Origin: an uncultured Actinomycetes bacterium | GTDB lineage: Bacteria; Actinomycetota; UBA4738; CALAEC01 | DNA length: 64,000 nt | Direction of reading: 5' to 3' | Assembly: GCA_964551945.1 (NCBI GenBank) | Contig: CAZKFH010000002.1 | Coordinates: 31,785 to 95,784 of the forward strand | Part shown: piece after piece, positions 2,569 to 50,818 of the stretch | Layout of the letters: each line of letters opens with the position of its first letter | Position numbering within the stretch: position 1 is the first letter of the stretch | Made by a program: the position numbers and the translations under genes | The notes under the pieces: generated by a model | The model's input: only the letters and a program-made list of their open reading frames with translations | Database searches by the model: none | What the model was told of the DNA's origin: nothing

Positions 2569-3639
2569 ATGTCCCTCACAACCTTCCTGCGGCACATGGT
2601 GGAGGCGGGAGCCAGCGACCTCCATCTCAAAGCCGGCTTGCCGCCGACGATCCGTGTCGACGGCAACCTCGAGCACGCTCCCTTCCCCCCGCTAACACCG
2701 GCGGACACGGAGAGCGCCGCGAGCGAGGTCCTCTCGGAGACGAAGGCCTTCGAGTTCAAGTCCTCCAACGAGGCGGACGTCGGCTACACGCTTCCGGGTG
2801 TCGGCCGCTTCCGCGTCAACGTCTTCAAGCAGCGCGGGAACGTGAACCTCGCGATCCGCCGCGTGCGCTCCGACATCCCGACATTCGAGGAGCTCCATCT
2901 GCCACCCGCGGTCGAGACCCTCGCCGCGGAGCCCCGCGGACTCGTGCTCGTGACCGGCCCCACGGGGACGGGCAAGACCACGACGATCGCATCCATGATC
3001 GGGTGGATCAACGCGCAGCGACACGCCCACATCGTCACGATCGAGGATCCGATCGAGATCGTGCACGACGACCTGCTCTCGATCGTGGATCAGCGAGAGA
3101 TCGGTCTCGACACGGAGTCGTATCGCACGGCGCTCAAGTACGTGGTCCGCCAGGATCCCGACGTCATCTTCATCGGTGAGATCCGCGACACGGAGACCGT
3201 CGAGGCCGCGCTTCAGGCCGCCGAGACGGGACATCTGGTGATCTCGACGCTGCACACGCTCGATGCAGCCGAGACCGTGAACCGCATCATCGACCTCTTC
3301 CCACCAGAGGTGCACCGGCAGGTCCGCATGTCGCTCGCCGGAACGTTGCGGGGGATCCTGAGTCAGCGCCTCGTTCCTCGCGCCGATGGCCGAGGGCGCG
3401 TGCCGGCCGTCGAGGCCCTCATCAACACCGGACGAGTGGCCGAGCGGATCGCGGACCCCGAGCAGACGAGCACGATCCCGGACGTGATCGCCGAGGGCGA
3501 CTTCTACGGCATGCAGACGTTCGACCAGGCCCTGGTCAAGCTCGTGGCGCAGGGGCTCGTCACACCTGACGACGCCGCCGGGGCCGCCTCGAACCCCCAC
3601 GACTTCCGGCTCACGCTCAAGCAAGCGCAGCTCACCTAA
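2569..3639 (+). CDS. pilT: Type IV pilus retraction ATPase PilT-like (twitching motility protein)
   Basis: Shows the SDLHLKAGLPPTIRVDG motif, Walker A GPTGTGKTT, and the VIFIGEIRD and ISTLHT PilT signature motifs. Confidence 0.8.
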   Translation: MSLTTFLRHMVEAGASDLHLKAGLPPTIRVDGNLEHAPFPPLTPADTESAASEVLSETKAFEFKSSNEADVGYTLPGVGRFRVNVFKQRGNVNLAIRRVRSDIPTFEELHLPPAVETLAAEPRGLVLVTGPTGTGKTTTIASMIGWINAQRHAHIVTIEDPIEIVHDDLLSIVDQREIGLDTESYRTALKYVVRQDPDVIFIGEIRDTETVEAALQAAETGHLVISTLHTLDAAETVNRIIDLFPPEVHRQVRMSLAGTLRGILSQRLVPRADGRGRVPAVEALINTGRVAERIADPEQTSTIPDVIAEGDFYGMQTFDQALVKLVAQGLVTPDDAAGAASNPHDFRLTLKQAQLT

Positions 3640-5433: not shown

Positions 5434-5898
5434 ATGCGGAACAGCGTCGACGTCCACAACTTCCTCCTCGAGCGGGAGGTCCCGCACGAGCTGGTGCCGG
5501 TCCGCGGCCGCTTCCGCTCGCCCGATCGGATCGCCGCGGTCCTGGGGCTGGAGCCGGATCAGGTGGGAAAGGTCGTGATCCTCGGCGCGAGCAAGGGGCT
5601 GGTCGCGGTGCTCGTCTCGTCACACCGTGAGGTGGATCTGCGACGGGTGGCGATCGCCGCGCCGACGCCCACGCTCGTCGAGATGACCTCGGAAGAGGTC
5701 ACCGACGCGACCGACTACTTCGCGGAGAGCGTGCCGCCGGTGGGCCTGCCGGCCGGGACGCAGGCAATCATGGACGGGGGGCTCGCGGAGCAGCAGGTCC
5801 TGTACTTCGCAGGCGGTGAAGCCTCGACGCTGCTCAAGATCCGCCCCGACGACCTCCGCCAGGCAACTGGGGCGAAGGTCGCGAAGGTGGCACGGTGA
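5434..5898 (+). CDS. YbaK/ProX-type aminoacyl-tRNA editing (deacylase) domain protein
   Basis: The 154-aa length and the pattern of YbaK/EbsC proteins (VHNFL...PHELV, KVVILG.SKG) fit this family. Confidence 0.6.
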   Translation: MRNSVDVHNFLLEREVPHELVPVRGRFRSPDRIAAVLGLEPDQVGKVVILGASKGLVAVLVSSHREVDLRRVAIAAPTPTLVEMTSEEVTDATDYFAESVPPVGLPAGTQAIMDGGLAEQQVLYFAGGEASTLLKIRPDDLRQATGAKVAKVAR

Positions 5899-22846: not shown

Positions 22847-23049
22847 GGAGGCAATTAAAGTAACAAAAGGACGCGCCTTCCGCGTTTCCCCAGGTCAGCA
22901 CGTGTATCACCGCGCGGCGACGATTTGGGTGCTGAGAAGGCCCGGGCTATACTCGCCCCTGTACTTCCCTCCGGGACCGCCTCGAGGCGGTCCCGATTTG
23001 TCTTCCCCAGCAGTTTGCACACCTGTGGAAAAGAGGTGTGGACAAGGAT
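22847..23049. promoter_or_regulatory. rpmH–dnaA divergent intergenic region with DnaA boxes and an AT-rich patch
   Basis: AT-rich GGCAATTAAAGTAACAAAAGG sits at about 22849..22873. A TATACT -10-like hexamer lies near 22948. CCTGTGGAAA is the reverse complement of the TTTCCACAGG motif. TGTGGACAA at 23037..23045 is the reverse complement of TTGTCCACA, the actinobacterial DnaA-box consensus, and overlaps the dnaA start. Confidence 0.6.
22972..23005 (+). terminator. Perfect 10-bp stem hairpin (CGGGACCGCC-TCGA-GGCGGTCCCG) followed by the T-rich ATTTGTCTT; terminator- or attenuator-like element ~40 nt upstream of dnaA
   Basis: The inverted repeat was read directly from the sequence. No plus-strand gene lies upstream, since rpmH is on the minus strand. 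Confidence 0.4.
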
Positions 23050-24411: not shown

Positions 24412-24613
24412 GGAAAACCTGTGGAGGAAACGACGGCCATGTGTCCCCAGTGGTTTGGGGTGTGGAGAACTCACTCACTGTCCACACGCTACGCACATGT
24501 CAGACCCACGGCCTACGCTCGGTGTTTGCGGGGTTATCCCGGTTTCCACAGGCACTACTACTAGTACTGGTCTTGAACTAGATGAAGAGAAGAATAGAAG
24601 GGGAGGTGGAGAA
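24412..24613. promoter_or_regulatory. oriC core, dnaA–dnaN intergenic: a DnaA-box cluster plus an AT-rich unwinding element with a trinucleotide (DnaA-trio-like) repeat
   Basis: DnaA-box-like 9-mers are CCTGTGGAG, TGTGGAGAA, CTGTCCACA (24478..24486), TTATCCCGG and TTTCCACAGG. An AT-rich stretch spans 24553..24600. The repeat CAC-TAC-TAC-TAG-TAC lies immediately 3' of a box. This is the mycobacterial-type oriC location. Confidence 0.7.
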
Positions 24614-25717
24614 GTGAAGTTCAGGTGCGATCGAGACCTTCTTTCGGAGGCTCTGCAGACGGTGCAACGTGGTGTCTCCACTCGGCCGGGGATCCCCGCC
24701 CTGACCGGTGTGCTCATGACGATCGATGCGGAGGGGCTTGCCCTGACGACGACCGACCTCGAGGTTACGACCGAGGTCCGGATCCCCGTCGAGGCGACCG
24801 AGGATGGCAACACGCTCGTGCCAGCCCGCCTCATCGCGGACATGGTCAAGTCTCTGCCGGCCGACGCCGTGGACTTCGAGAGCGATGGATCACGCGCGAA
24901 GGTCGTCTGTCGCAGCTTCGAGGGCACACTTCGGTGCCTCGCTGCGGAAGACTTCCCCGCCGTCCGTGATGTGGAGGGCATCAGCGTCAAGGTCCAGGCA
25001 CAGGCGTTCTCCGAGGGCGTGGGACAGGTTGCTCGCGCTGCCTCACGGGACGAAGCGCGCCCCGTGCTCACCGGTGTGCTGATGGAGGCCAACCGCGAGG
25101 GATTGATCATCGTCGCGACGGACTCCTACCGCCTCGCGGTCAAGGAGCTCAGCGCGAGCGCGGGGGGAGAAGCCCGTGCCCTGGTCCCGGAGCGAGCCCT
25201 GACGGAGGCAGGACGTGCCGCAGCTGGACAGGAGAAGGGTGACGTCGAGCTTGTCATCGGCGAGGCGCAGGTGGTGTTTCGTGTCGGGACGCTTCGGTTG
25301 ACATCCAGGCTGATCGACGGCGAGTTCCCGAACTACCGTCAACTGCTGCCGGAGCCGGCCGAGAACAAGCTCTCCGCGGGTCGCCAGGAGCTCCTGGAGG
25401 CCGTGCGGCGTGTGGGGCTGTTGGCACGGGAATCGTCACCGGTTCGCTTCGAGCTGAACGCTCTCGGGGTACGCCTCACGTCGGCATCACCGGACCTCGG
25501 TGAGGCTGTGGAGGCGGTTGAGGCGAAGTACGAGGGCGAGGAGATCACGGCGGCCTTCAACCCCGGCTACCTCGGCGACGGCCTGTCGGTAGCCGTGGCG
25601 GATCGAGTGACTCTCGAGCTGCGGGACGGCCTGAAGCCGGCACTGGTTCGTGGGGAAGGTGACGACTCCTTCACGTATCTCGTGATGCCGGTGCGTCTTC
25701 CCGCGCCGGTCGGCTAG
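24614..25717 (+). CDS. dnaN: DNA polymerase III beta sliding clamp
   Basis: The GTG at 24614 is preceded by a GGGAGGTGGAG ribosome-binding site. The N-terminus VKFRCDRDLLSEALQTVQRGVS matches DnaN. The track's longer ORF 24455..25717 spans oriC. Confidence 0.9.
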   Translation: MKFRCDRDLLSEALQTVQRGVSTRPGIPALTGVLMTIDAEGLALTTTDLEVTTEVRIPVEATEDGNTLVPARLIADMVKSLPADAVDFESDGSRAKVVCRSFEGTLRCLAAEDFPAVRDVEGISVKVQAQAFSEGVGQVARAASRDEARPVLTGVLMEANREGLIIVATDSYRLAVKELSASAGGEARALVPERALTEAGRAAAGQEKGDVELVIGEAQVVFRVGTLRLTSRLIDGEFPNYRQLLPEPAENKLSAGRQELLEAVRRVGLLARESSPVRFELNALGVRLTSASPDLGEAVEAVEAKYEGEEITAAFNPGYLGDGLSVAVADRVTLELRDGLKPALVRGEGDDSFTYLVMPVRLPAPVG

Positions 25718-25734
25718 GAGCACCACTGCGACTG

Positions 25735-26805
25735 CTGTGGCTGGAGGTTCGCGACTTCCGCAACCACGTCGAGACTCGGCTGGAGCTCGAGGATGGAGTC
25801 GTGGCCCTGGTGGGTCCGAACGCGCAAGGGAAGACGAACCTCCTCGAAGCGGCCCACTACCTGCTCACATTGCACTCTCCTCGAGTTGCCGCAGACCTGC
25901 CCCTCGTGCGCCAAGGGGCCGGCAGCGCGTTCCTCCGGGGCGAGGTGGAGACCACGACGGGCAAGGTCCTCGTGGAGGTCGAGGTCCGCGCGTCCGGTGC
26001 GAACAGGATCCAGGTCAACCGTAGTGGTGTGCGTCGTAAGCGGGATCTCCGTCAGCGCGTCCGCTCGGTGATGTTCATCCCCGAGGACCTCGATGTCATC
26101 CAGGGCCAGCCCGACGACCGACGACGATTCATGGATGAGGCTACGCAGGCGATGTGGCCGCGGACGGAGGAGCCTCGTGTCGCGTACGACAAGGCGTTGC
26201 GCCAGCGGAACCGTTTGTTGAAGGAGAACGAGAGTGCGACCGCGCCCCCAGATCTCGACGCGTGGGACGCGGAGCTCGCGGTTCATGGCGCCGCGGTGAC
26301 TGCGGCTCGCCGGCGCGCGCTGGCAGCGGTCGGTCCCAGGGCCGGCGACGAGTTCGAGCGTGTCTCCGGGGAGCGTTTGCGCGTCGACTACCGTCCCTCC
26401 GTCCAGGGGGAGGATGACGTCGAGGCCTCGATGCTTCGGCAGCTCAAAGATCGTCGAGACGACGAGCTGGTGCGACGGACTACCCTCGTCGGACCCCACC
26501 GTGACGAGCTCGAGATCGCTGTCGGGGAGATGATCGCGCGCCGCTTCGCCTCCCACGGAGAGTCGTGGGCTGGTGCGCTCTGCCTGCGGCTCGGTGTGTG
26601 GAGCGGTGTGTCTGTCGAGCTCGACGAGCCGCCCGTGCTGATCCTTGACGATCCGTTCTCGGGACTCGACCCTGAGCGCCGCAAGCGGCTCGCCGATGGT
26701 TTCTCCGAGCGTCGTCAGGTGTTGATCTCGGTGCCGGACGAGGCGCAGGTGCCGGCCGCCGCGACAGTGTGGGAGGTTCGAGAGGGCCATGCCACGCGGC
26801 GCTGA
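25735..26805 (+). CDS. recF: DNA replication/repair protein RecF (the N-terminal start codon is non-canonical or unresolved)
   Basis: Walker A is GPNAQGKTN. The ABC-ATPase signature and Walker B are LILDDPFSGLD. Upstream in frame is LWLEVRDFRNH, the typical RecF N-terminus, but no ATG or GTG precedes it. The first ATG is at 25801. Confidence 0.85.
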   Translation: MWLEVRDFRNHVETRLELEDGVVALVGPNAQGKTNLLEAAHYLLTLHSPRVAADLPLVRQGAGSAFLRGEVETTTGKVLVEVEVRASGANRIQVNRSGVRRKRDLRQRVRSVMFIPEDLDVIQGQPDDRRRFMDEATQAMWPRTEEPRVAYDKALRQRNRLLKENESATAPPDLDAWDAELAVHGAAVTAARRRALAAVGPRAGDEFERVSGERLRVDYRPSVQGEDDVEASMLRQLKDRRDDELVRRTTLVGPHRDELEIAVGEMIARRFASHGESWAGALCLRLGVWSGVSVELDEPPVLILDDPFSGLDPERRKRLADGFSERRQVLISVPDEAQVPAAATVWEVREGHATRR

Positions 26806-27127
26806 CGAGCCTTCCGGGATCGGCGCCGTGATCAAGCAGATACTCGGCACGCCTCGCCTCCGACAGGGCCTGGCGCTCGGCCGCCTGTCGCATGCATGGA
26901 GTGACGTGGTGGGTGAGAAGCTGGCCGCGCAGACGGAGCCGGTGTCCCTCGACGGCGCCGGATTGGTGGTCGGAGCGTCGAGCCCGGCATGGGGCGCGCA
27001 GGTCCGTTTCCTGGCCGAAGACATCCGCCAGAGGGCCTCCGAAGCCCTCGATGGCCTGCCCGTCGGCCCGGTCAGGGTTGTCGTCCGCAACGACGCGCAA
27101 AACCGCAGGTCAAAGGGTGTTTTTTGA
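26789..27127 (+). CDS. DUF721 family protein (DciA-like, the Rv0004 position)
   Basis: Length is 112 aa. It sits between recF and gyrB exactly as Rv0004 does. The pattern LGRLSHAWSDVVGEKLAAQTEPVSLDGAGLVVGASSPAWGAQVRFL matches DUF721. Confidence 0.6.
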   Translation: MPRGADEPSGIGAVIKQILGTPRLRQGLALGRLSHAWSDVVGEKLAAQTEPVSLDGAGLVVGASSPAWGAQVRFLAEDIRQRASEALDGLPVGPVRVVVRNDAQNRRSKGVF

Positions 27128-40984: not shown

Positions 40985-42157
40985 ATGCGAGAGGCAGTGA
41001 TAGTCGAAGCGATCAGGACCCCGATCGGCAAGAAGGCCGGCAAGCTCAGCGGCTGGCATCCCGTGGACCTGCTGGCCGAGGTCCTCAAGGCAGCGGTCGA
41101 GCGGACGGGTATCGATCCCGCGCTGGTGGAGGACAACATCACCGGTTGCGTCTCGCAGACCGGCGAGCAGGGGATCAACATCGCGCGCAACGCGTGGCTT
41201 GCCGCGGGACTGCCCGAGGAGGTACCGGCCGTCACCATCGACCGTCAGTGTGGCTCCAGCCAGCAGGCGGCCCACTTCGCCGCGCAGGGAGTGATCGCCG
41301 GGACCTACGACCTCGTGATCGCCTCCGGCGTGGAGAACATGACCCGCGTCCCGATGGGCGTCACGGCATCGCAGGGTCCGGGCTTCCCGTTCCCCGAGTC
41401 GTTGATGAACCGTTACGAGGGCGGCCTGGTCCCGCAGGGCGTCTCGGCGGAGATCATCGCCGAGCGCTGGGATCTGTCGCGTCAGGAGCTCGACGAGTTC
41501 GGTCTACGCAGCCACGAGCTGGCTGCCAAGGCGACCGATGAAGGGAAGTTCCAGAACGAGATCTTCCCCATCAAGGTCGAGGGCGAGAGCGGTACCGAGG
41601 TCTTCGAGCAGGATCAGGGCATCCGGCGCGGCTCGACGGTCGAGAAGATGGGAACGCTCCCGACGCCCTTCAAGGAGGGTGGCGTCATCACGGCGGGGAA
41701 CTCCAGCCAGATCTCTGACGGCGCGTCGGCCGTCGTGATCGCCAGCCGCGAGAAGGCCGAGGAGCTCGGCCTGAAGCCGAGGGCCCGGTTCCACGCGTTC
41801 TCGCTCGCCGGCGTCGACCCGATCACGATGCTCACGGGCGTGATCCCGTCGACGAAGAAGGCGCTCGCGAACGCGAACCTGAAGCTGGACGACATTGACG
41901 TGGTCGAGATCAACGAGGCGTTCGCGTCCGTCGTGCTCTCGTGGAAGAAGGAGCTCGAGATCCCCGACGAGTGGTTCGAGAAGAACGTGAACCCGAACGG
42001 GGGAGCGATCGCCATCGGCCACCCACTCGGCGCCAGCGGGACCCGCTTGATGGCGTCGCTGCTGAACGAGCTCGAGCGGCGTGAGGCGCGGTTCGGCCTT
42101 CAGACGATGTGCGAGGGCGGCGGCGTCTCCAACGCGACCATCATCGAGCGCCTCTAA
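40985..42157 (+). CDS. Acetyl-CoA C-acetyltransferase (thiolase II)
   Basis: The thiolase motifs are the active Cys near DRQCGSSQQA, NEAFASV, and GHPLGASG near the C-terminus. Confidence 0.9.
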   Translation: MREAVIVEAIRTPIGKKAGKLSGWHPVDLLAEVLKAAVERTGIDPALVEDNITGCVSQTGEQGINIARNAWLAAGLPEEVPAVTIDRQCGSSQQAAHFAAQGVIAGTYDLVIASGVENMTRVPMGVTASQGPGFPFPESLMNRYEGGLVPQGVSAEIIAERWDLSRQELDEFGLRSHELAAKATDEGKFQNEIFPIKVEGESGTEVFEQDQGIRRGSTVEKMGTLPTPFKEGGVITAGNSSQISDGASAVVIASREKAEELGLKPRARFHAFSLAGVDPITMLTGVIPSTKKALANANLKLDDIDVVEINEAFASVVLSWKKELEIPDEWFEKNVNPNGGAIAIGHPLGASGTRLMASLLNELERREARFGLQTMCEGGGVSNATIIERL

Positions 42158-42204
42158 AGAGCGCATCCAGGATCGCTTGCGAGGGGCGCCGGAAGGCGCC
42201 CCTC

Positions 42205-42564
42205 GTGCTTTACTCGCCCCCGGTGCTCTTCGTCTGGATCCTCCTCGGCGCCACCGCCACGTCCCTGTTCCTGCTGGGGTTGAGCTGGCTCGCCGACGTG
42301 GCGCCGGGAGCTCCGCTGGTCGCGCTCGCGCTCGGACTGTTCGTCTTCCTCTTCGGTGTGCGGATGCTTCGTCGCGCGTCGATCCCACCCCCCGCGCACG
42401 ACGGACCCGCGGAAGACGTCGTGGACCTCGACGTGTTCTTCGTATGCGTCGAGTGCGGGACGGAATTCCGGGTGGAGAAGATCGGCGAGCTGCAAGTGCC
42501 CCGGCACTGCGGGGAGCGCATGGCGGTGGAGCGCCGGCCGCGCACCGTGCCGGATCTCAACTAG
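42205..42564 (+). CDS. Two-TM membrane protein with a C-terminal zinc ribbon (CVEC...HC)
   Basis: A GTG at 42205 is inferred as the start. The helices are VLFVWILLGATATSLFLLGLSWLA and LVALALGLFVFLFGV. The C-terminus reads FFVCVECGTEFRVEKIGELQVPRHCGERM. Confidence 0.4.
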   Translation: MLYSPPVLFVWILLGATATSLFLLGLSWLADVAPGAPLVALALGLFVFLFGVRMLRRASIPPPAHDGPAEDVVDLDVFFVCVECGTEFRVEKIGELQVPRHCGERMAVERRPRTVPDLN

Positions 42565-42806
42565 CCGTCGCGGAGCTCCTCGGCCTTCTCCTTGAGCTTG
42601 CGGAAGTCCTTGCGGGGACGGCCCCCGGGGGTGAGAGAGTCGGTCTTCGAGAATCCCCAGCCGGAGAAGCGGATCCCCACGCCACCCCAGGTGCGCTTCA
42701 GCTCGCCGCCACACTCGGGGCAGGGGCCCGGCGGCCCGGACCCCATCGGCTGCATCTCCTCGACCTCGTGGCCACAGGCCCGGCAGCGGTAGGCGTAGAT
42801 CGGCAC
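42561..42806 (-). CDS. FmdB-family zinc-ribbon regulatory protein
   Basis: The N-terminus MPIYAYRCRACGHEVE...CPECGG is the FmdB CxxC-x-CxxC pattern. Confidence 0.6.
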   Translation of the reverse strand: MPIYAYRCRACGHEVEEMQPMGSGPPGPCPECGGELKRTWGGVGIRFSGWGFSKTDSLTPGGRPRKDFRKLKEKAEELRDG

Positions 42807-42811
42807 CCTAG

Positions 42812-42830
42812 TTATCCACAGTGTGGAAAT
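42812..42830. promoter_or_regulatory. Head-to-head DnaA-box palindrome TTATCCACA-g-TGTGGAAAT in a local AT-rich islet (about 42808..42860)
   Basis: It contains a perfect E. coli-consensus DnaA box. The partner site is inverted with 7 of 9 matches. The core CCACA-G-TGTGG is palindromic. It lies immediately upstream of the fmdB start and downstream of crgA. Confidence 0.4.
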
Positions 42831-42856
42831 GCATGGGGATAATTACGAGCCTGTGA

Positions 42857-43093
42857 TTAGCGCCACTGGGTGGCCAGGCCGAAGCCCAACGCGATCATGC
42901 CCAGGCCGCTCCAGAGGTACAGGTTGGAGGGCTGCTCCGCCCAGGGGATCAGGGAGAGGTAGTTGAGGATGATGGTCGCGACCCCCAGGCCGAGAATGAC
43001 AAGAACCGTGACTCCGAACCACGTGGGGCTCGGCTTCGGCTTCTTCTTCGGCGGTGGCTGGTACGTGTTCCGCTTCGACTTGGACTTGGGCAC
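42857..43093 (-). CDS. crgA: Cell division protein CrgA
   Basis: The GTG at 43093 has a GGAGGAG ribosome-binding site. The sequence VPKSKSKRNTYQPP...WFGVTVLVILGLGVATIILNYLSLIPWAEQPSNLYLWSGLGMIALGFGLATQWR matches Mtb CrgA (two transmembrane segments, ~80 aa). Confidence 0.7.
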   Translation of the reverse strand: MPKSKSKRNTYQPPPKKKPKPSPTWFGVTVLVILGLGVATIILNYLSLIPWAEQPSNLYLWSGLGMIALGFGLATQWR

Positions 43094-43128
43094 GTCTCTC
43101 CTCCTCGAGTGCGAAATATCATAGTCAC

Positions 43129-43839
43129 ATGCAGGCGCCCGCCCCCCGAATGGCCATGGTCCTCGCGGCCGGGCTGCTTGGCTTCCTCGCCGTCCTCGCG
43201 GCAACTCGCCCCGCCGGCTCGCCGCGAGAGCTGCGCCGGTTCGAGCTCGCCGATCTGGTCCAGGCGGAGGACGCGCAGGTGCGGGACCTGCGAGCCCAGC
43301 TCGAGGGGCTCGAGGCCCAGATCGGAGACTTGGACGACGAGTCGGGGGACGCCAACCTGAATGCGCTCAGGGAAGAGATCGCGTTGCTCGACCGGTCCGG
43401 CGGGTCCGCAGCCGTCGAGGGGCCCGGCCTCCTCGTCACCCTCGATGACAGCCCGCAGGTCCGTTCCCCGTCGGGAGACCCGAACGACCTGGTGGTGCAC
43501 GAGGCCGACATCCAGACGGTCGTCAACGCCTTGTGGGCGTCCGGAGCGGAGGTCGTGGCGATCAACGGCGAGCGCCTGACGGCGGGTTCAGCGGTGCGGT
43601 GTGCGGGAAACACCCTCTTGTTGCACGGGACACTGCACACGCCGCCCTACGAGATCGCCGCGATCGGCCAGCCGGCCGAGCTCGCGTCTTCTCTCATGGG
43701 TCGGCCCGGGATGGATCGCCTGGAGGCCGCGTTCGACGCGTATGGGCGTGGCTTCGACATCGAGACGAGGATGGTGCGTGTGAACCCAGGCTCAACGTCG
43801 AGCGGCCGAGGTGTCGCCGAGCTTATGGAGGACGCCTGA
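43129..43839 (+). CDS. DUF881 family membrane protein (the Rv0012 position)
   Basis: The ATG at 43129 is followed by the transmembrane helix MAMVLAAGLLGFLAVLAA, a coiled-coil segment (LRAQLEGLEAQIGDL), and a conserved C-terminal domain. Confidence 0.6.
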   Translation: MQAPAPRMAMVLAAGLLGFLAVLAATRPAGSPRELRRFELADLVQAEDAQVRDLRAQLEGLEAQIGDLDDESGDANLNALREEIALLDRSGGSAAVEGPGLLVTLDDSPQVRSPSGDPNDLVVHEADIQTVVNALWASGAEVVAINGERLTAGSAVRCAGNTLLLHGTLHTPPYEIAAIGQPAELASSLMGRPGMDRLEAAFDAYGRGFDIETRMVRVNPGSTSSGRGVAELMEDA

Positions 43840-49192: not shown

Positions 49193-50818
49193 TCATGGCC
49201 GCTCCGCGGCTCGCCGCTTGGCCTCCGTGCGTCGCTCCGCCTCGAGACGCTCGAGCTTGACCGACGAGTGGTCAACGAAACGCATCGCGTCGGCGATCGC
49301 GCGATGTCCGGCCTGCTCGGCGATGAGGTGGTGCATCTCCTGACAGACGCGCCGGTACGTCGGATGGCCCTGGGGGGTGGTTCGCAGCTCGATGACATGC
49401 ATCGCCTCGCGGGCGTTCATCTGCATCACGAAGCGGATCCGGTACGCCATCGAGACGGCGTACTGACCGGCCTGGTCCAGCCCGCGCATGACGAGCTCGT
49501 CGTACAGGGTGGCTGACTCGGCCATCACACGATCCCAGTCGTCGGCCGCTCCGGCTTCCTCGACCTCGGGCGGCCGCTCGAAGCCGTGGATCGGCGACAG
49601 CCGTTGCCACTCGAGCGTGAGGAGGCGGTGGCGCTGGAGGTCCCGGAACGCGCCGTAGTCGCAGAGCACGTCGAAGCGGTACGAGGTCCGTTCGAACGCT
49701 CTCCCCGGCTTGTGCCGGCGATTGATCCTCTCTCCCACGTAGGTCTTCAGGACCCTGGCGCGCTCCTCGCTGTTCATGCCGCGCACGATGTGGAGAAGCC
49801 GGTCGTCGGGCACATCCGCGACCGAGTACAGCGCTGCGGCGACGACTTTCACCTCGCCGTCAGCGTCGAAATCGGTGAGCGTCACCTCGGGGCGCGTCGG
49901 GGGTGCGTCAAGGAGCTCGTTCACGAGGAAGCTGGCCGTTCGAAGCTCCGTCATGTCCTCTCGGGTCTTCTCCAGGTAGCGCGTCCATGCTCCACCGCGA
50001 TCTTCCACGTCGACGCGCGTGAGGAAGGCGGGGATCACCGCGCGCAGCTCCACGAGCATGAGGTCCGCGAACGACCGCACCTCCTCCAACGGATGGGCAC
50101 GCATGCGGAGGAGCAGCTGCTCGTACCCCTGCCCCGTTCCGTAGATCCCGACATTCGAGCGGGTCGCCGCGGGCAGCAATCCGCGCAGGGCGTCACATGC
50201 CTTCGCGCGGATCGTCGAGCGATAGACGAAGTCGCTGTCGCTCGGGTCCCTCGGGTAGCGCTCCTGGAGATGCTCCTGCAGCGGCTCAAGCCACTTCGCG
50301 TACGTCTCGAACGCGCTGTCGAGCGTTCGCTCGTAGCGCTCCGCGAGCCCCGCCCGGACCACCTCCGGCGGGGTGACGTAGCGCCACCGGCCACCCGGCC
50401 GGTCGTCGTACGGCACGTAGCGCGTCGACTGCTCGAGGTACGCCATCAGCCGTCCCCACTCGAGGACCTTGGCCAGAGGCTGTGAGGATTGCTCGCACGC
50501 GAGGTGCACGCCGCCGAGCTGCGCGACGGAGTCGTCGCCGTACTCGAGGAAGACACGCTCGTAGAGGTCCTCGGCTCGGGCTGCGCCGACGTTGTCGAGG
50601 AGCTGCTCGCTGCCGCGCTCCGCATGATCCGCGAACTCGTCGAGGAAGAGCCTGCGGAGGGACTTGGGGGATCGCGAGTACCGTGCGAACAGGGCGCCCT
50701 TCGTGACCTCGGGAAGGTTCACGAGGGCGAAGACCGGTTGATCGAGGTTCGAGAAGTGCGGGCGCAGGAGCCGTCGTTCCTCATCGGTGAACTCTTCCGG
50801 AGCGAACCAGAGCGTCAC
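49193..50818 (-). CDS. thyX: Tandem-domain FAD-dependent thymidylate synthase ThyX-like protein (N domain degenerate, C domain with RHR motif)
   Basis: The C-half motif FDVLCDYGAFRDLQRHRLLTLEWQRLS aligns with ThyX [29 protein letters not shown]. Both halves contain an ARxxLPxAT......TGxxR......R block. Confidence 0.55.
   Translation of the reverse strand: MTLWFAPEEFTDEERRLLRPHFSNLDQPVFALVNLPEVTKGALFARYSRSPKSLRRLFLDEFADHAERGSEQLLDNVGAARAEDLYERVFLEYGDDSVAQLGGVHLACEQSSQPLAKVLEWGRLMAYLEQSTRYVPYDDRPGGRWRYVTPPEVVRAGLAERYERTLDSAFETYAKWLEPLQEHLQERYPRDPSDSDFVYRSTIRAKACDALRGLLPAATRSNVGIYGTGQGYEQLLLRMRAHPLEEVRSFADLMLVELRAVIPAFLTRVDVEDRGGAWTRYLEKTREDMTELRTASFLVNELLDAPPTRPEVTLTDFDADGEVKVVAAALYSVADVPDDRLLHIVRGMNSEERARVLKTYVGERINRRHKPGRAFERTSYRFDVLCDYGAFRDLQRHRLLTLEWQRLSPIHGFERPPEVEEAGAADDWDRVMAESATLYDELVMRGLDQAGQYAVSMAYRIRFVMQMNAREAMHVIELRTTPQGHPTYRRVCQEMHHLIAEQAGHRAIADAMRFVDHSSVKLERLEAERRTEAKRRAAERP

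Follow-up and report, generated by a model that had tools for sequence, protein, structure and literature searches.

A DnaA-box element in the 3' flank of crgA, the probable counterpart of a mycobacterial DnaA interaction site, recurring across the Actinobacteria

The window analysed here, a 64-kb stretch (64,000 nucleotides) from an uncultured Actinomycetes bacterium, carries a compact element of four DnaA-type boxes between the cell-division gene crgA and an fmdB-type zinc-ribbon gene, outside the presumed oriC. Block-by-block alignment indicates that this element is the orthologue of the Rv0010c-Rv0011c site of Mycobacterium tuberculosis, which is bound by DnaA, and the alignable variants found in other genomes indicate that the region 3' of crgA has carried it since ancient times throughout the phylum, in lineages as different as deep-branching uncultured groups and Streptomyces. 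In the following, we describe the element and its relatives, and weigh whether it may act on the initiator itself, on the neighbouring genes, or through a protein other than DnaA.

A preliminary description of this DNA, made from the sequence alone, had singled out a near-perfect DnaA-box palindrome, TTATCCACA-g-TGTGGAAAT, in an AT-rich islet that abuts the fmdB start, 3' of crgA and about 18 kb from oriC. All of these statements were borne out: the palindrome is present at 42812-42830 with a perfect 13-bp core, TCCACA-g-TGTGGA; the 50-bp spacer has 46% GC against 67% for the window, placing it in the lowest 0.2% of 50-bp windows; both genes are identified by Pfam; the fmdB start is 5 nt away; and the distance to the dnaA-dnaN spacer is 18.2 kb. 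The palindrome nevertheless forms only part of a larger element, since box 3 and an inverted pair of weak DnaA-like boxes, here called IR-A, had been missed. On the + strand, positions 42807-42860 read CCTAG-TTATCCACA-G-TGTGGAAAT-GCA-TGGGGATAA-TTACGAGCCTGTGATTAG, and in the direction of crgA the spacer reads TAATCACA-GGCT-CGTAATT-ATCCCCA-TGC-ATTTCCACA-C-TGTGGATAA, where TGTGGATAA is TTATCCACA on the other strand. Box 2 matches a perfect inverted copy of box 1 at 7 of 9 positions, and the arms of IR-A match each other at 5 of 7 positions in the window and at 6 of 7 in close relatives, which have TGTAATT. The coordinates of the element and of the genes and spacers referred to below are collected in Table 1.

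Table 1. Features of the DnaA-box element and of its surroundings in the 64-kb window; scores are those of the mycobacterial DnaA matrix described in the text
Feature	Position	Strand	Sequence or description	Score or support
Whole element	42812-42860		four DnaA-type boxes, 49 bp	
crgA-fmdB spacer	42807-42856		AT-rich islet, 50 bp	
Box 1	42812-42820	+	TTATCCACA, full-consensus DnaA box, 5 nt from fmdB GTG start	14.98
Box 2	42822-42830	-	ATTTCCACA (= TGTGGAAAT on + strand), converging on box 1, 1-bp spacer (g, 42821)	12.98
Box 3	42834-42842	-	TTATCCCCA, co-oriented with box 2, 3 bp apart	12.05
IR-A	42841-42860	-	AATCACA-GGCT-CGTAATT (42858 down to 42841), inverted pair of weak DnaA-like boxes	
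IR-A left arm	42852-42860	-	CTAATCACA, contains crgA stop codon TAA	12.98
crgA	42857-43093	-	cell-division gene; element at 3' end	Pfam PF06781, E 2e-12
fmdB-type zinc-ribbon gene	42561-42806	-	directly downstream of crgA; GTG start	Pfam PF09723 Zn_ribbon_8, E 8e-16
DUF881 gene	43141-43839	+	divergent from crgA	
dnaA	23050-24411			Bac_DnaA_C domain
dnaN	24614-25717			
Boxes in rpmH-dnaA spacer	23024-23045	-	two direct DnaA boxes, TTTTCCACA and TTGTCCACA, 4 bp apart	
dnaA-dnaN spacer	24412-24613		presumed oriC, at least 5 DnaA-type boxes	

To quantify the resemblance to DnaA boxes, we scored the window with the mycobacterial DnaA position weight matrix of Hicks 2020, which is derived from mycobacterial oriC boxes. 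Box 1 is the top-scoring 9-mer of the entire window, and boxes 1, 2 and 3 as well as the left arm of IR-A all fall within the top 0.1% of scores. With four boxes above this threshold, 42812-42860 is the only such 52-bp stretch of the window, the dnaA-dnaN spacer reaching three. When 64 kb are simulated with a Markov-1 model, 3% of the runs contain a four-box stretch; shuffles of the islet itself yield four boxes with P = 0.00065. The sequence TTATCCACA has a single exact occurrence in the 64 kb, and the core palindrome occurs once when one mismatch is allowed, against 0.13 occurrences expected by chance. The element also qualifies as a DnaA-box cluster in the conventional sense of at least two closely spaced 9-mers matching TTATNCACA or TT(G/C/A/T)TCCACA. 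Other candidates in the window were dismissed: a second matrix cluster at about 32.6 kb consists of weak boxes inside a DUF3566 membrane-protein gene, and isolated TTCTCCACA boxes at 49789 (in a Thy1-domain gene) and 52871 (in a protein-kinase gene) lie within genes and are at chance level.

The element is not itself an origin. The minimum of the cumulative GC skew falls in the 23-24 kb bin, beside dnaA, so that dnaA and the skew minimum together lie at 23-24.6 kb, and the element comprises only 49 bp. The box repertoire of the oriC region consists of TTTTCCACA, TTGTCCACA, TTCTCCACA and CTGTCCACA, plus one TGTCCCCA box in the dnaA-dnaN spacer; since the same kinds of variants are used there, those of the element belong to the organism's own box repertoire. 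The DnaA encoded in the window has a normal domain IV, and its closest solved relative is the DNA-binding domain of M. tuberculosis DnaA.

The loci of model organisms were reached by a search seeded with CrgA sequences of M. tuberculosis and S. coelicolor, which led to database proteins and from these to their contigs. The crgA-Rv0010c spacer of L025, an assembly from the M. tuberculosis complex, reads AATCACACGCATGTGATT-CATCCCCA-CTG-TTGATAGCG-TC-TGTGGATAAC, and nearly the same spacer sequence is found in Mycobacterium sp. DL592, giving the pattern AATCACA-N4-TGTGATT-CATCCCCA-N14-TGTGGATAAC downstream of crgA in these loci. The IR-A of the window aligns with AATCACACGCATGTGATT, and the alignment proceeds block by block through AATCACA...TGTrATT, ATCCCCA and TGTGGATAAC; both sites lie directly 3' of crgA, 13-18 kb from oriC. 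They differ in three respects. In the genus Mycobacterium, box 2 has decayed to TTGATAGCG while the distance of 14 nt from box 3 to box 1 is kept, whereas in the window box 2 is intact and forms a true palindrome with box 1; the window IR-A is weaker than that of the mycobacterial site; and the downstream gene is fmdB in the window and the bPH_6 gene Rv0010c in M. tuberculosis.

The mycobacterial site has been studied experimentally. By genome-wide mapping of DnaA, Hicks et al. (2020, PLoS Pathog 16:e1009063) found five strong sites, namely oriC, rpmH-dnaA, upstream of dnaB, Rv3843c and Rv0010c-Rv0011c (PMC7738170). The last of these was bound by M. tuberculosis DnaA both when DNA was affinity-purified in vitro and then sequenced (IDAP-seq) and in electrophoretic mobility shift assays, and its M. 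smegmatis counterpart was recovered by chromatin immunoprecipitation sequencing (PMC7738170). A small palindrome 65 bp upstream of Rv0010c is hit repeatedly, both by clinical single-nucleotide polymorphisms (SNPs) and by IS6110 insertions, of which 22 are independent, and three reconstructed SNPs gave longer cells and higher isoniazid tolerance, like hypomorph-like dnaA alleles; the mechanism was left between titration and nucleotide exchange (PMC7738170). When we converted the clinical SNP coordinates (L025 position = 16996 minus H37Rv position), they fell on IR-A, mostly on the A/T positions of CACA/TGTG that carry most of the matrix weight. A recurrent SNP of another kind, G13619T (L025 position 3377; two independent events in table S11 of Hicks et al.), turns the TCCCCA of box 3 into the consensus TCCACA. 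The earlier proposal of a DnaA-box site outside oriC is thus supported, the element being orthologous in position and sequence to a site bound by DnaA in M. tuberculosis, and by analogy we consider it very probable that DnaA binds the element in this organism as well.

The preliminary description had proposed comparing the region downstream of crgA in related genomes, and this comparison proved informative. The CrgA homologues at 67-99% identity come from uncultured Actinomycetota. Alignment of CrgA retrieved 24 genome loci, one of which (L024) was excluded as a spurious 15-residue match, leaving 23 true crgA loci, and the element is kept in 21 of these. The core palindrome, with at most one mismatch, is found 30-98 bp after the crgA stop in 16 loci, including metagenome-assembled genomes (MAGs) labelled Frankiaceae and Mycobacteriales, and a recognisable variant is present in five more (L009, L011, L012, L014 and L016); in the remaining two, L010 and L015, the element was not found. 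L010 carries instead two to three tandem copies of GGCACTGACCAGCTGTCCAT after the crgA stop (3226-3300). The distance from the crgA stop to the element is 0-98 bp in most loci.

The pattern of variation follows the boxes. Within the clade of the window, the boxes are conserved at about 1.0, compared with 0.73-0.74 at third codon positions of crgA and fmdB, and the spacers between boxes vary too. In a manual alignment of the window with L001-L023, L025, L027, L028 and L029, the element can be followed across lineages through intermediates, and 65 distinct high-GC instances are available. Boxes 1 and 2 are separated by 1 bp in every genome locus with an intact palindrome, the counterpart of box 1 in relatives including M. 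tuberculosis is TGTGGAxAA, and every lineage keeps box 3 as xTCC(C/A)CA at a distance of 3 or 4 bp from box 2. The variable position of the palindrome is box position 3, which varies independently in the two arms, without compensation; this is the behaviour of DnaA boxes and would not be expected of an RNA helix.

In lineages with fmdB next in line, no more than about 30 nt separate the element from the fmdB start codon. In L012 an inserted gene separates the element from crgA and not from fmdB; it occupies 3256-3630, encodes a protein of about 100 residues and carries a DTYCxDxLxQ motif, which may be a CsoR/RcnR signature. Two Streptomyces genomes have crgA and a rhomboid gene in convergent orientation, and the spacer contains TTATCCACA-N4-TTTTCCACA-G-TGGGGAAAA-N12-TGTGGATAA, with more boxes further on. 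The element thus lies between two convergent 3' ends in Streptomyces, and does so too in L009, L011, L019, L020, L021 and L023. A strong crgA terminator (13-bp stem and U-tract, z = -4.3) stands between crgA and the element in L031, a GC-rich hairpin does so in S. tsukubensis, and in L029 the element probably lies beyond the crgA terminator hairpin as well.

We also approached the question from the opposite direction, by scanning metagenome contigs for the pattern TCCCCA-N3-4-TTNTCCACANTGTGGA. This returned 101 stretches, of which 80 were examined as loci, holding 83 matches; because the pattern itself fixed the spacing of boxes 1 and 2 at 1 bp, these matches are not independent evidence for that spacing. 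Using hidden Markov models built from the CrgA sequences collected in this analysis, we found a CrgA open reading frame (ORF) within 800 bp of 65 of the 83 matches, with the element downstream on the same strand in 62 cases and inverted in 3. The inverted copies lie at 2915-2940 in L041, 2150-2175 in L059 and 2529-2554 in L071, and in the latter two about 390-430 bp separate the element from the crgA stop, placing it at the opposite end of the spacer. Among the other 18 matches, six are too close to a contig end to tell, one (L093) is on a high-GC contig without a CrgA match, and 11 have other contexts: three at the start of dnaA, one in an oriC-like stretch packed with boxes (L107), one inside an alcohol-dehydrogenase gene (L075), which is probably due to chance, and six uncharacterised. 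The three at dnaA are on low-GC contigs (28-31% GC; L054 4167-4196, L033 at about 1082 and L103 at about 388), where the module TTATCCACA-N1-TGTGGATAA-N3-TGGGGATAA stops a few nt short of the probable dnaA ATG; the ORF at 4175-5548 of L054 is DnaA by Pfam. The composite motif therefore marks the crgA flank in Actinobacteria, and several of its other matches are at dnaA or in an oriC-like stretch.

One metagenomic lineage (GC 0.64-0.68) carries two copies of the complete element, IR-A and three boxes, 250-370 bp apart (L031 5259-5284 and 5511-5536; L074 4272-4297 and 4641-4666; L081 515-540 and 805-830). Behind the second copy in L031, a 200-bp stretch (5540-5740) is packed with GTTGATCA and GTTGTCCACA-like repeats, resembling a small oriC.

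These distributions bear directly on what the element might do. The preliminary description had suggested, among other things, a DnaA-controlled promoter, and in a related form one could imagine a local transcriptional device in which bound DnaA serves as a roadblock or operator on read-through from crgA into fmdB (into Rv0010c in mycobacteria), so that a small zinc-ribbon protein, or the formation of the crgA 3' end, would be coupled to initiator status. A scan of the crgA-fmdB spacer found no terminator, no T-tract and no promoter-like site on the - strand; fmdB must therefore be read through the element, which places bound DnaA in the path of RNA polymerase travelling from crgA to fmdB. The 5 nt between box 1 and the fmdB start fit such a role, as does the presence of an identical module directly before dnaA in a low-GC bacterium, a position that suggests autoregulation at once. 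The device would, however, have difficulty in explaining why the element persists in loci without a following gene on that strand (Streptomyces and the six convergent MAG loci listed above), why it is inverted in three loci and why it lies beyond a terminator in L031; moreover, dnaA mutants of M. tuberculosis express Rv0010c and crgA at unchanged levels (PMC7738170). The element can apparently work in either orientation and away from any promoter, and because it lies between convergent genes and is sometimes inverted, a promoter role is not its conserved function. A DnaA-regulated promoter was accordingly rejected, given the missing - strand promoter-like site and the convergent 3' ends; what survives of the suggestion is a local effect on fmdB in this lineage. 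As the conserved role, we regard the local device, the strongest competitor of the reading favoured below, as possible and doubtful. The proposed roles do not exclude one another, and if DnaA binds, some effect on fmdB in this lineage is almost unavoidable.

The element might also lack a function altogether, being a palindrome that arose by chance in an AT-rich spacer, a dispersed repeat, or a terminator or structured RNA belonging to crgA. The palindrome can be folded into a short hairpin, and on the + strand a promoter-like match, TCCACA-17-GATAAT, overlaps boxes 1-3 at 42815-42843 and reads antisense into crgA. As a general feature this match was rejected, since the -10-like hexamer is not kept in other lineages. 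An Rfam scan of the whole window returned two tRNAs and nothing else, the RNA fold of the spacer is no better than that of shuffled sequences (z = -0.34), and with the uncompensated variation of the arms and the missing T-tract this speaks against a structured RNA or intrinsic terminator, which we likewise rejected. The element is, finally, single-copy in the window and deeply conserved while its flanks vary, so that we consider a non-functional origin very improbable.

A further suggestion of the preliminary description, an unrelated palindrome-binding regulator, is disfavoured. It would hold that the whole element, or its IR-A half, is the operator of another protein that recognises CACA/TGTG palindromes, its likeness to DnaA boxes being incidental. 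IR-A is indeed a weak match to the DnaA box, and the antitoxin HigA2 shifts an oligonucleotide of the M. tuberculosis site containing ATCAC-N4-7-GTGAT at 8 uM (PMC11205783). HigA2 belongs, however, to a toxin-antitoxin pair described in M. tuberculosis and probably does not account for an element found throughout the phylum, boxes 1-3 agree with the complete 9-mer, outer T positions included, and binding of DnaA to the orthologue has been demonstrated (PMC7738170). Away from crgA, the three matches at the start of dnaA and the one in the oriC-like L107 stretch also argue for DnaA. MtrA was considered following a paper that mentions crgA together with DnaA boxes, and was rejected because its motif, a direct repeat of GTnAC-type units, does not fit; operators of CRP, NrdR, Rex, WhiA and BldD were set aside on half-site orientation or spacing in an informal comparison. 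On balance, another binding protein appears improbable.

What remains is that the main conserved role of the element is to act on DnaA itself, in one direction or the other, to which we would assign a little less than an even chance. Sites of this kind are known in Escherichia coli as DnaA-reactivating sequences (DARS). The bioD-uvrB spacer of E. coli K-12, which we take to be the location of DARS1, reads TTATCCACT-attcc-TGTGGATAA-cca-TGTGTATTA. This agrees with the published DARS core, in which boxes I and II are opposed with a 5-bp space and box III is co-oriented (PMC6868365). The cores of DARS1 and DARS2 and the element of the window have three boxes in the same order and orientation, one facing two (on the + strand of the window, TTATCCACA-g-TGTGGAAAT-gca-TGGGGATAA), with the same 3-bp spacer between the co-oriented boxes and a further degenerate box flanking the core. 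The likeness is one of geometry, and no sequence homology to the E. coli sites is claimed. As far as we are aware, Actinobacteria are without Fis and classical IHF, the regulators of DARS2.

We propose that DnaA assembles on the element, away from oriC, and that this assembly in turn feeds back on the initiator; the effect would be exerted at the DNA level, whatever the strand and whichever promoters are nearby. The consensus box 1 would be filled first, a second protomer would then be recruited to the converging box 2, a third would join head-to-tail on box 3, and further protomers would extend onto the weak IR-A pair, yielding a complex that would support active DnaA in the manner of a DARS; both the sequence of these assembly steps and the direction of the effect are what we infer. 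Between the two signs, a positive, DARS-like outcome is favoured over a datA-like sink or inactivation, because the loss-type M. tuberculosis SNPs mimic weak dnaA alleles, and loss of a site that resembles loss of DnaA function points to a positive role. Even so, a positive effect can be advanced only tentatively, sink or inactivation being unlikely, and the more specific proposal of an actinobacterial DARS counterpart, that is, a phylum-wide DnaA-reactivating or otherwise DnaA-remodelling site, is one that we make with considerable doubt.

The opposite sign, which the preliminary description had already considered, unlike the DARS-like one, corresponds to a negative site, either datA-like or a simple sink, which would draw DnaA from oriC or promote hydrolysis of its ATP, and so hold initiation back after duplication of the region near the origin. 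A datA-type site pairs a box cluster, such as the one present here, with an IHF site. Strong boxes packed densely at 18 kb from oriC are copied early, and there are precedents in datA of E. coli, the ori-proximal clusters of Bacillus subtilis and the D78, H69 and H24 clusters of S. coelicolor, all of which lie near but outside oriC and modulate initiation (PMC3479198). These clusters are larger than the element of the window and act negatively. The Streptomyces spacer after crgA holds many more boxes than that of the window and is itself a large cluster, like those outside oriC. Presumably crgA (SCO3854) lies on the S. coelicolor cosmid H69, and the H69 cluster may be the crgA-linked one. With only four boxes, the site in the window would be a small sink, and in M. 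tuberculosis box-destroying SNPs resemble a decrease of DnaA function, not an increase; we therefore find a negative site unlikely.

Several observations weigh against the preferred reading of a site acting positively on DnaA. The facing boxes are separated by 1 bp in place of the 5 bp of a DARS, so that the element falls outside the DARS definition and the head-to-head geometry of DARS may not apply. The dnaA autoregulatory operators offer another comparison: the identical N1/N3 three-box module found a few nt before the dnaA start comes from low-GC metagenome contigs of another phylum, and it may mark a generic high-affinity DnaA operator and not a DARS signature. The crgA-linked element is not at dnaA and in many lineages is upstream of no gene. 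The constant proximity to the fmdB start in lineages that carry this gene, and the L012 insertion that left the element attached to fmdB, fit a local transcriptional role. The argument from the SNPs is weak, since G13619T is, going by the box sequence, a predicted gain of box quality, unlike the SNPs in IR-A. The rate of replication initiation was unchanged in the dnaA mutants of Hicks et al. (PMC7738170).

As to its surroundings, the window represents a standard actinobacterial ori-proximal region, with the gene order parB, parA, jag, yidC, rpmH, dnaA, dnaN, gyrB and gyrA, then tRNA-Ile, tRNA-Ala and crgA; beyond crgA follow two Ser/Thr protein-kinase genes (one with PASTA repeats) and FtsW/RodA-family, PP2C phosphatase and FhaA-type genes. 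The divergent promoter spacer between crgA and the DUF881 gene (43100-43140) is AT-rich too and contains one DnaA-like box, ATAGTCACA (43121, +, top 0.1% score). On the other side, an ORF at 42109-42564 (+) encodes a predicted membrane protein of 151 residues with a C-terminal, zinc-ribbon-like CxxC...C tail and without a Pfam match; it converges on fmdB, the 3' ends overlapping by 4 nt, and similar ORFs adjoin fmdB in L002-L007, L014 and L016. An exact sequence look-up of the window FmdB gave no identical record. Between dnaN and gyrB, a position usually occupied by recF in Actinobacteria, lies an ORF of 457 residues (25714-27090, -) with coding-type composition and without a Pfam match.

The DnaA interaction site as such is already known from mycobacteria, and the element of the window is its orthologue in an uncultured actinobacterial lineage. 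In a literature search that was incomplete and is no proof of novelty, we found nothing on the crgA-linked site beyond Hicks et al. and the HigA2 paper, and nothing on phylum-wide conservation or DARS-like geometry; the fixed link to the crgA flank (or to crgA-fmdB), the three-box core and the tolerance of inversion likewise appear not to be described in the literature searched. The M. tuberculosis site is accordingly no mycobacterial oddity, and instead an ancient element of the crgA flank with a defined three-box core. Control of DnaA in Actinobacteria is largely unknown, and Rv0010c-Rv0011c is the one site outside oriC with a genetic phenotype, raised isoniazid tolerance in mutants. Independence of orientation and promoter narrows the possible mechanisms, boxes 1-3 and IR-A provide clear and separable mutational targets, and the question is open to study in fast-growing models such as M. 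smegmatis, Corynebacterium and Streptomyces. We know of no Hda, SeqA, DiaA, Fis or YabA homologue described in this phylum. If the element were indeed a DARS counterpart, it would constitute a positive arm of initiator control in Actinobacteria, its 1-bp geometry of facing boxes would represent a second structural solution for head-to-head DnaA contacts, and it would provide a mechanism for the clinical isoniazid-tolerance mutations of M. tuberculosis.

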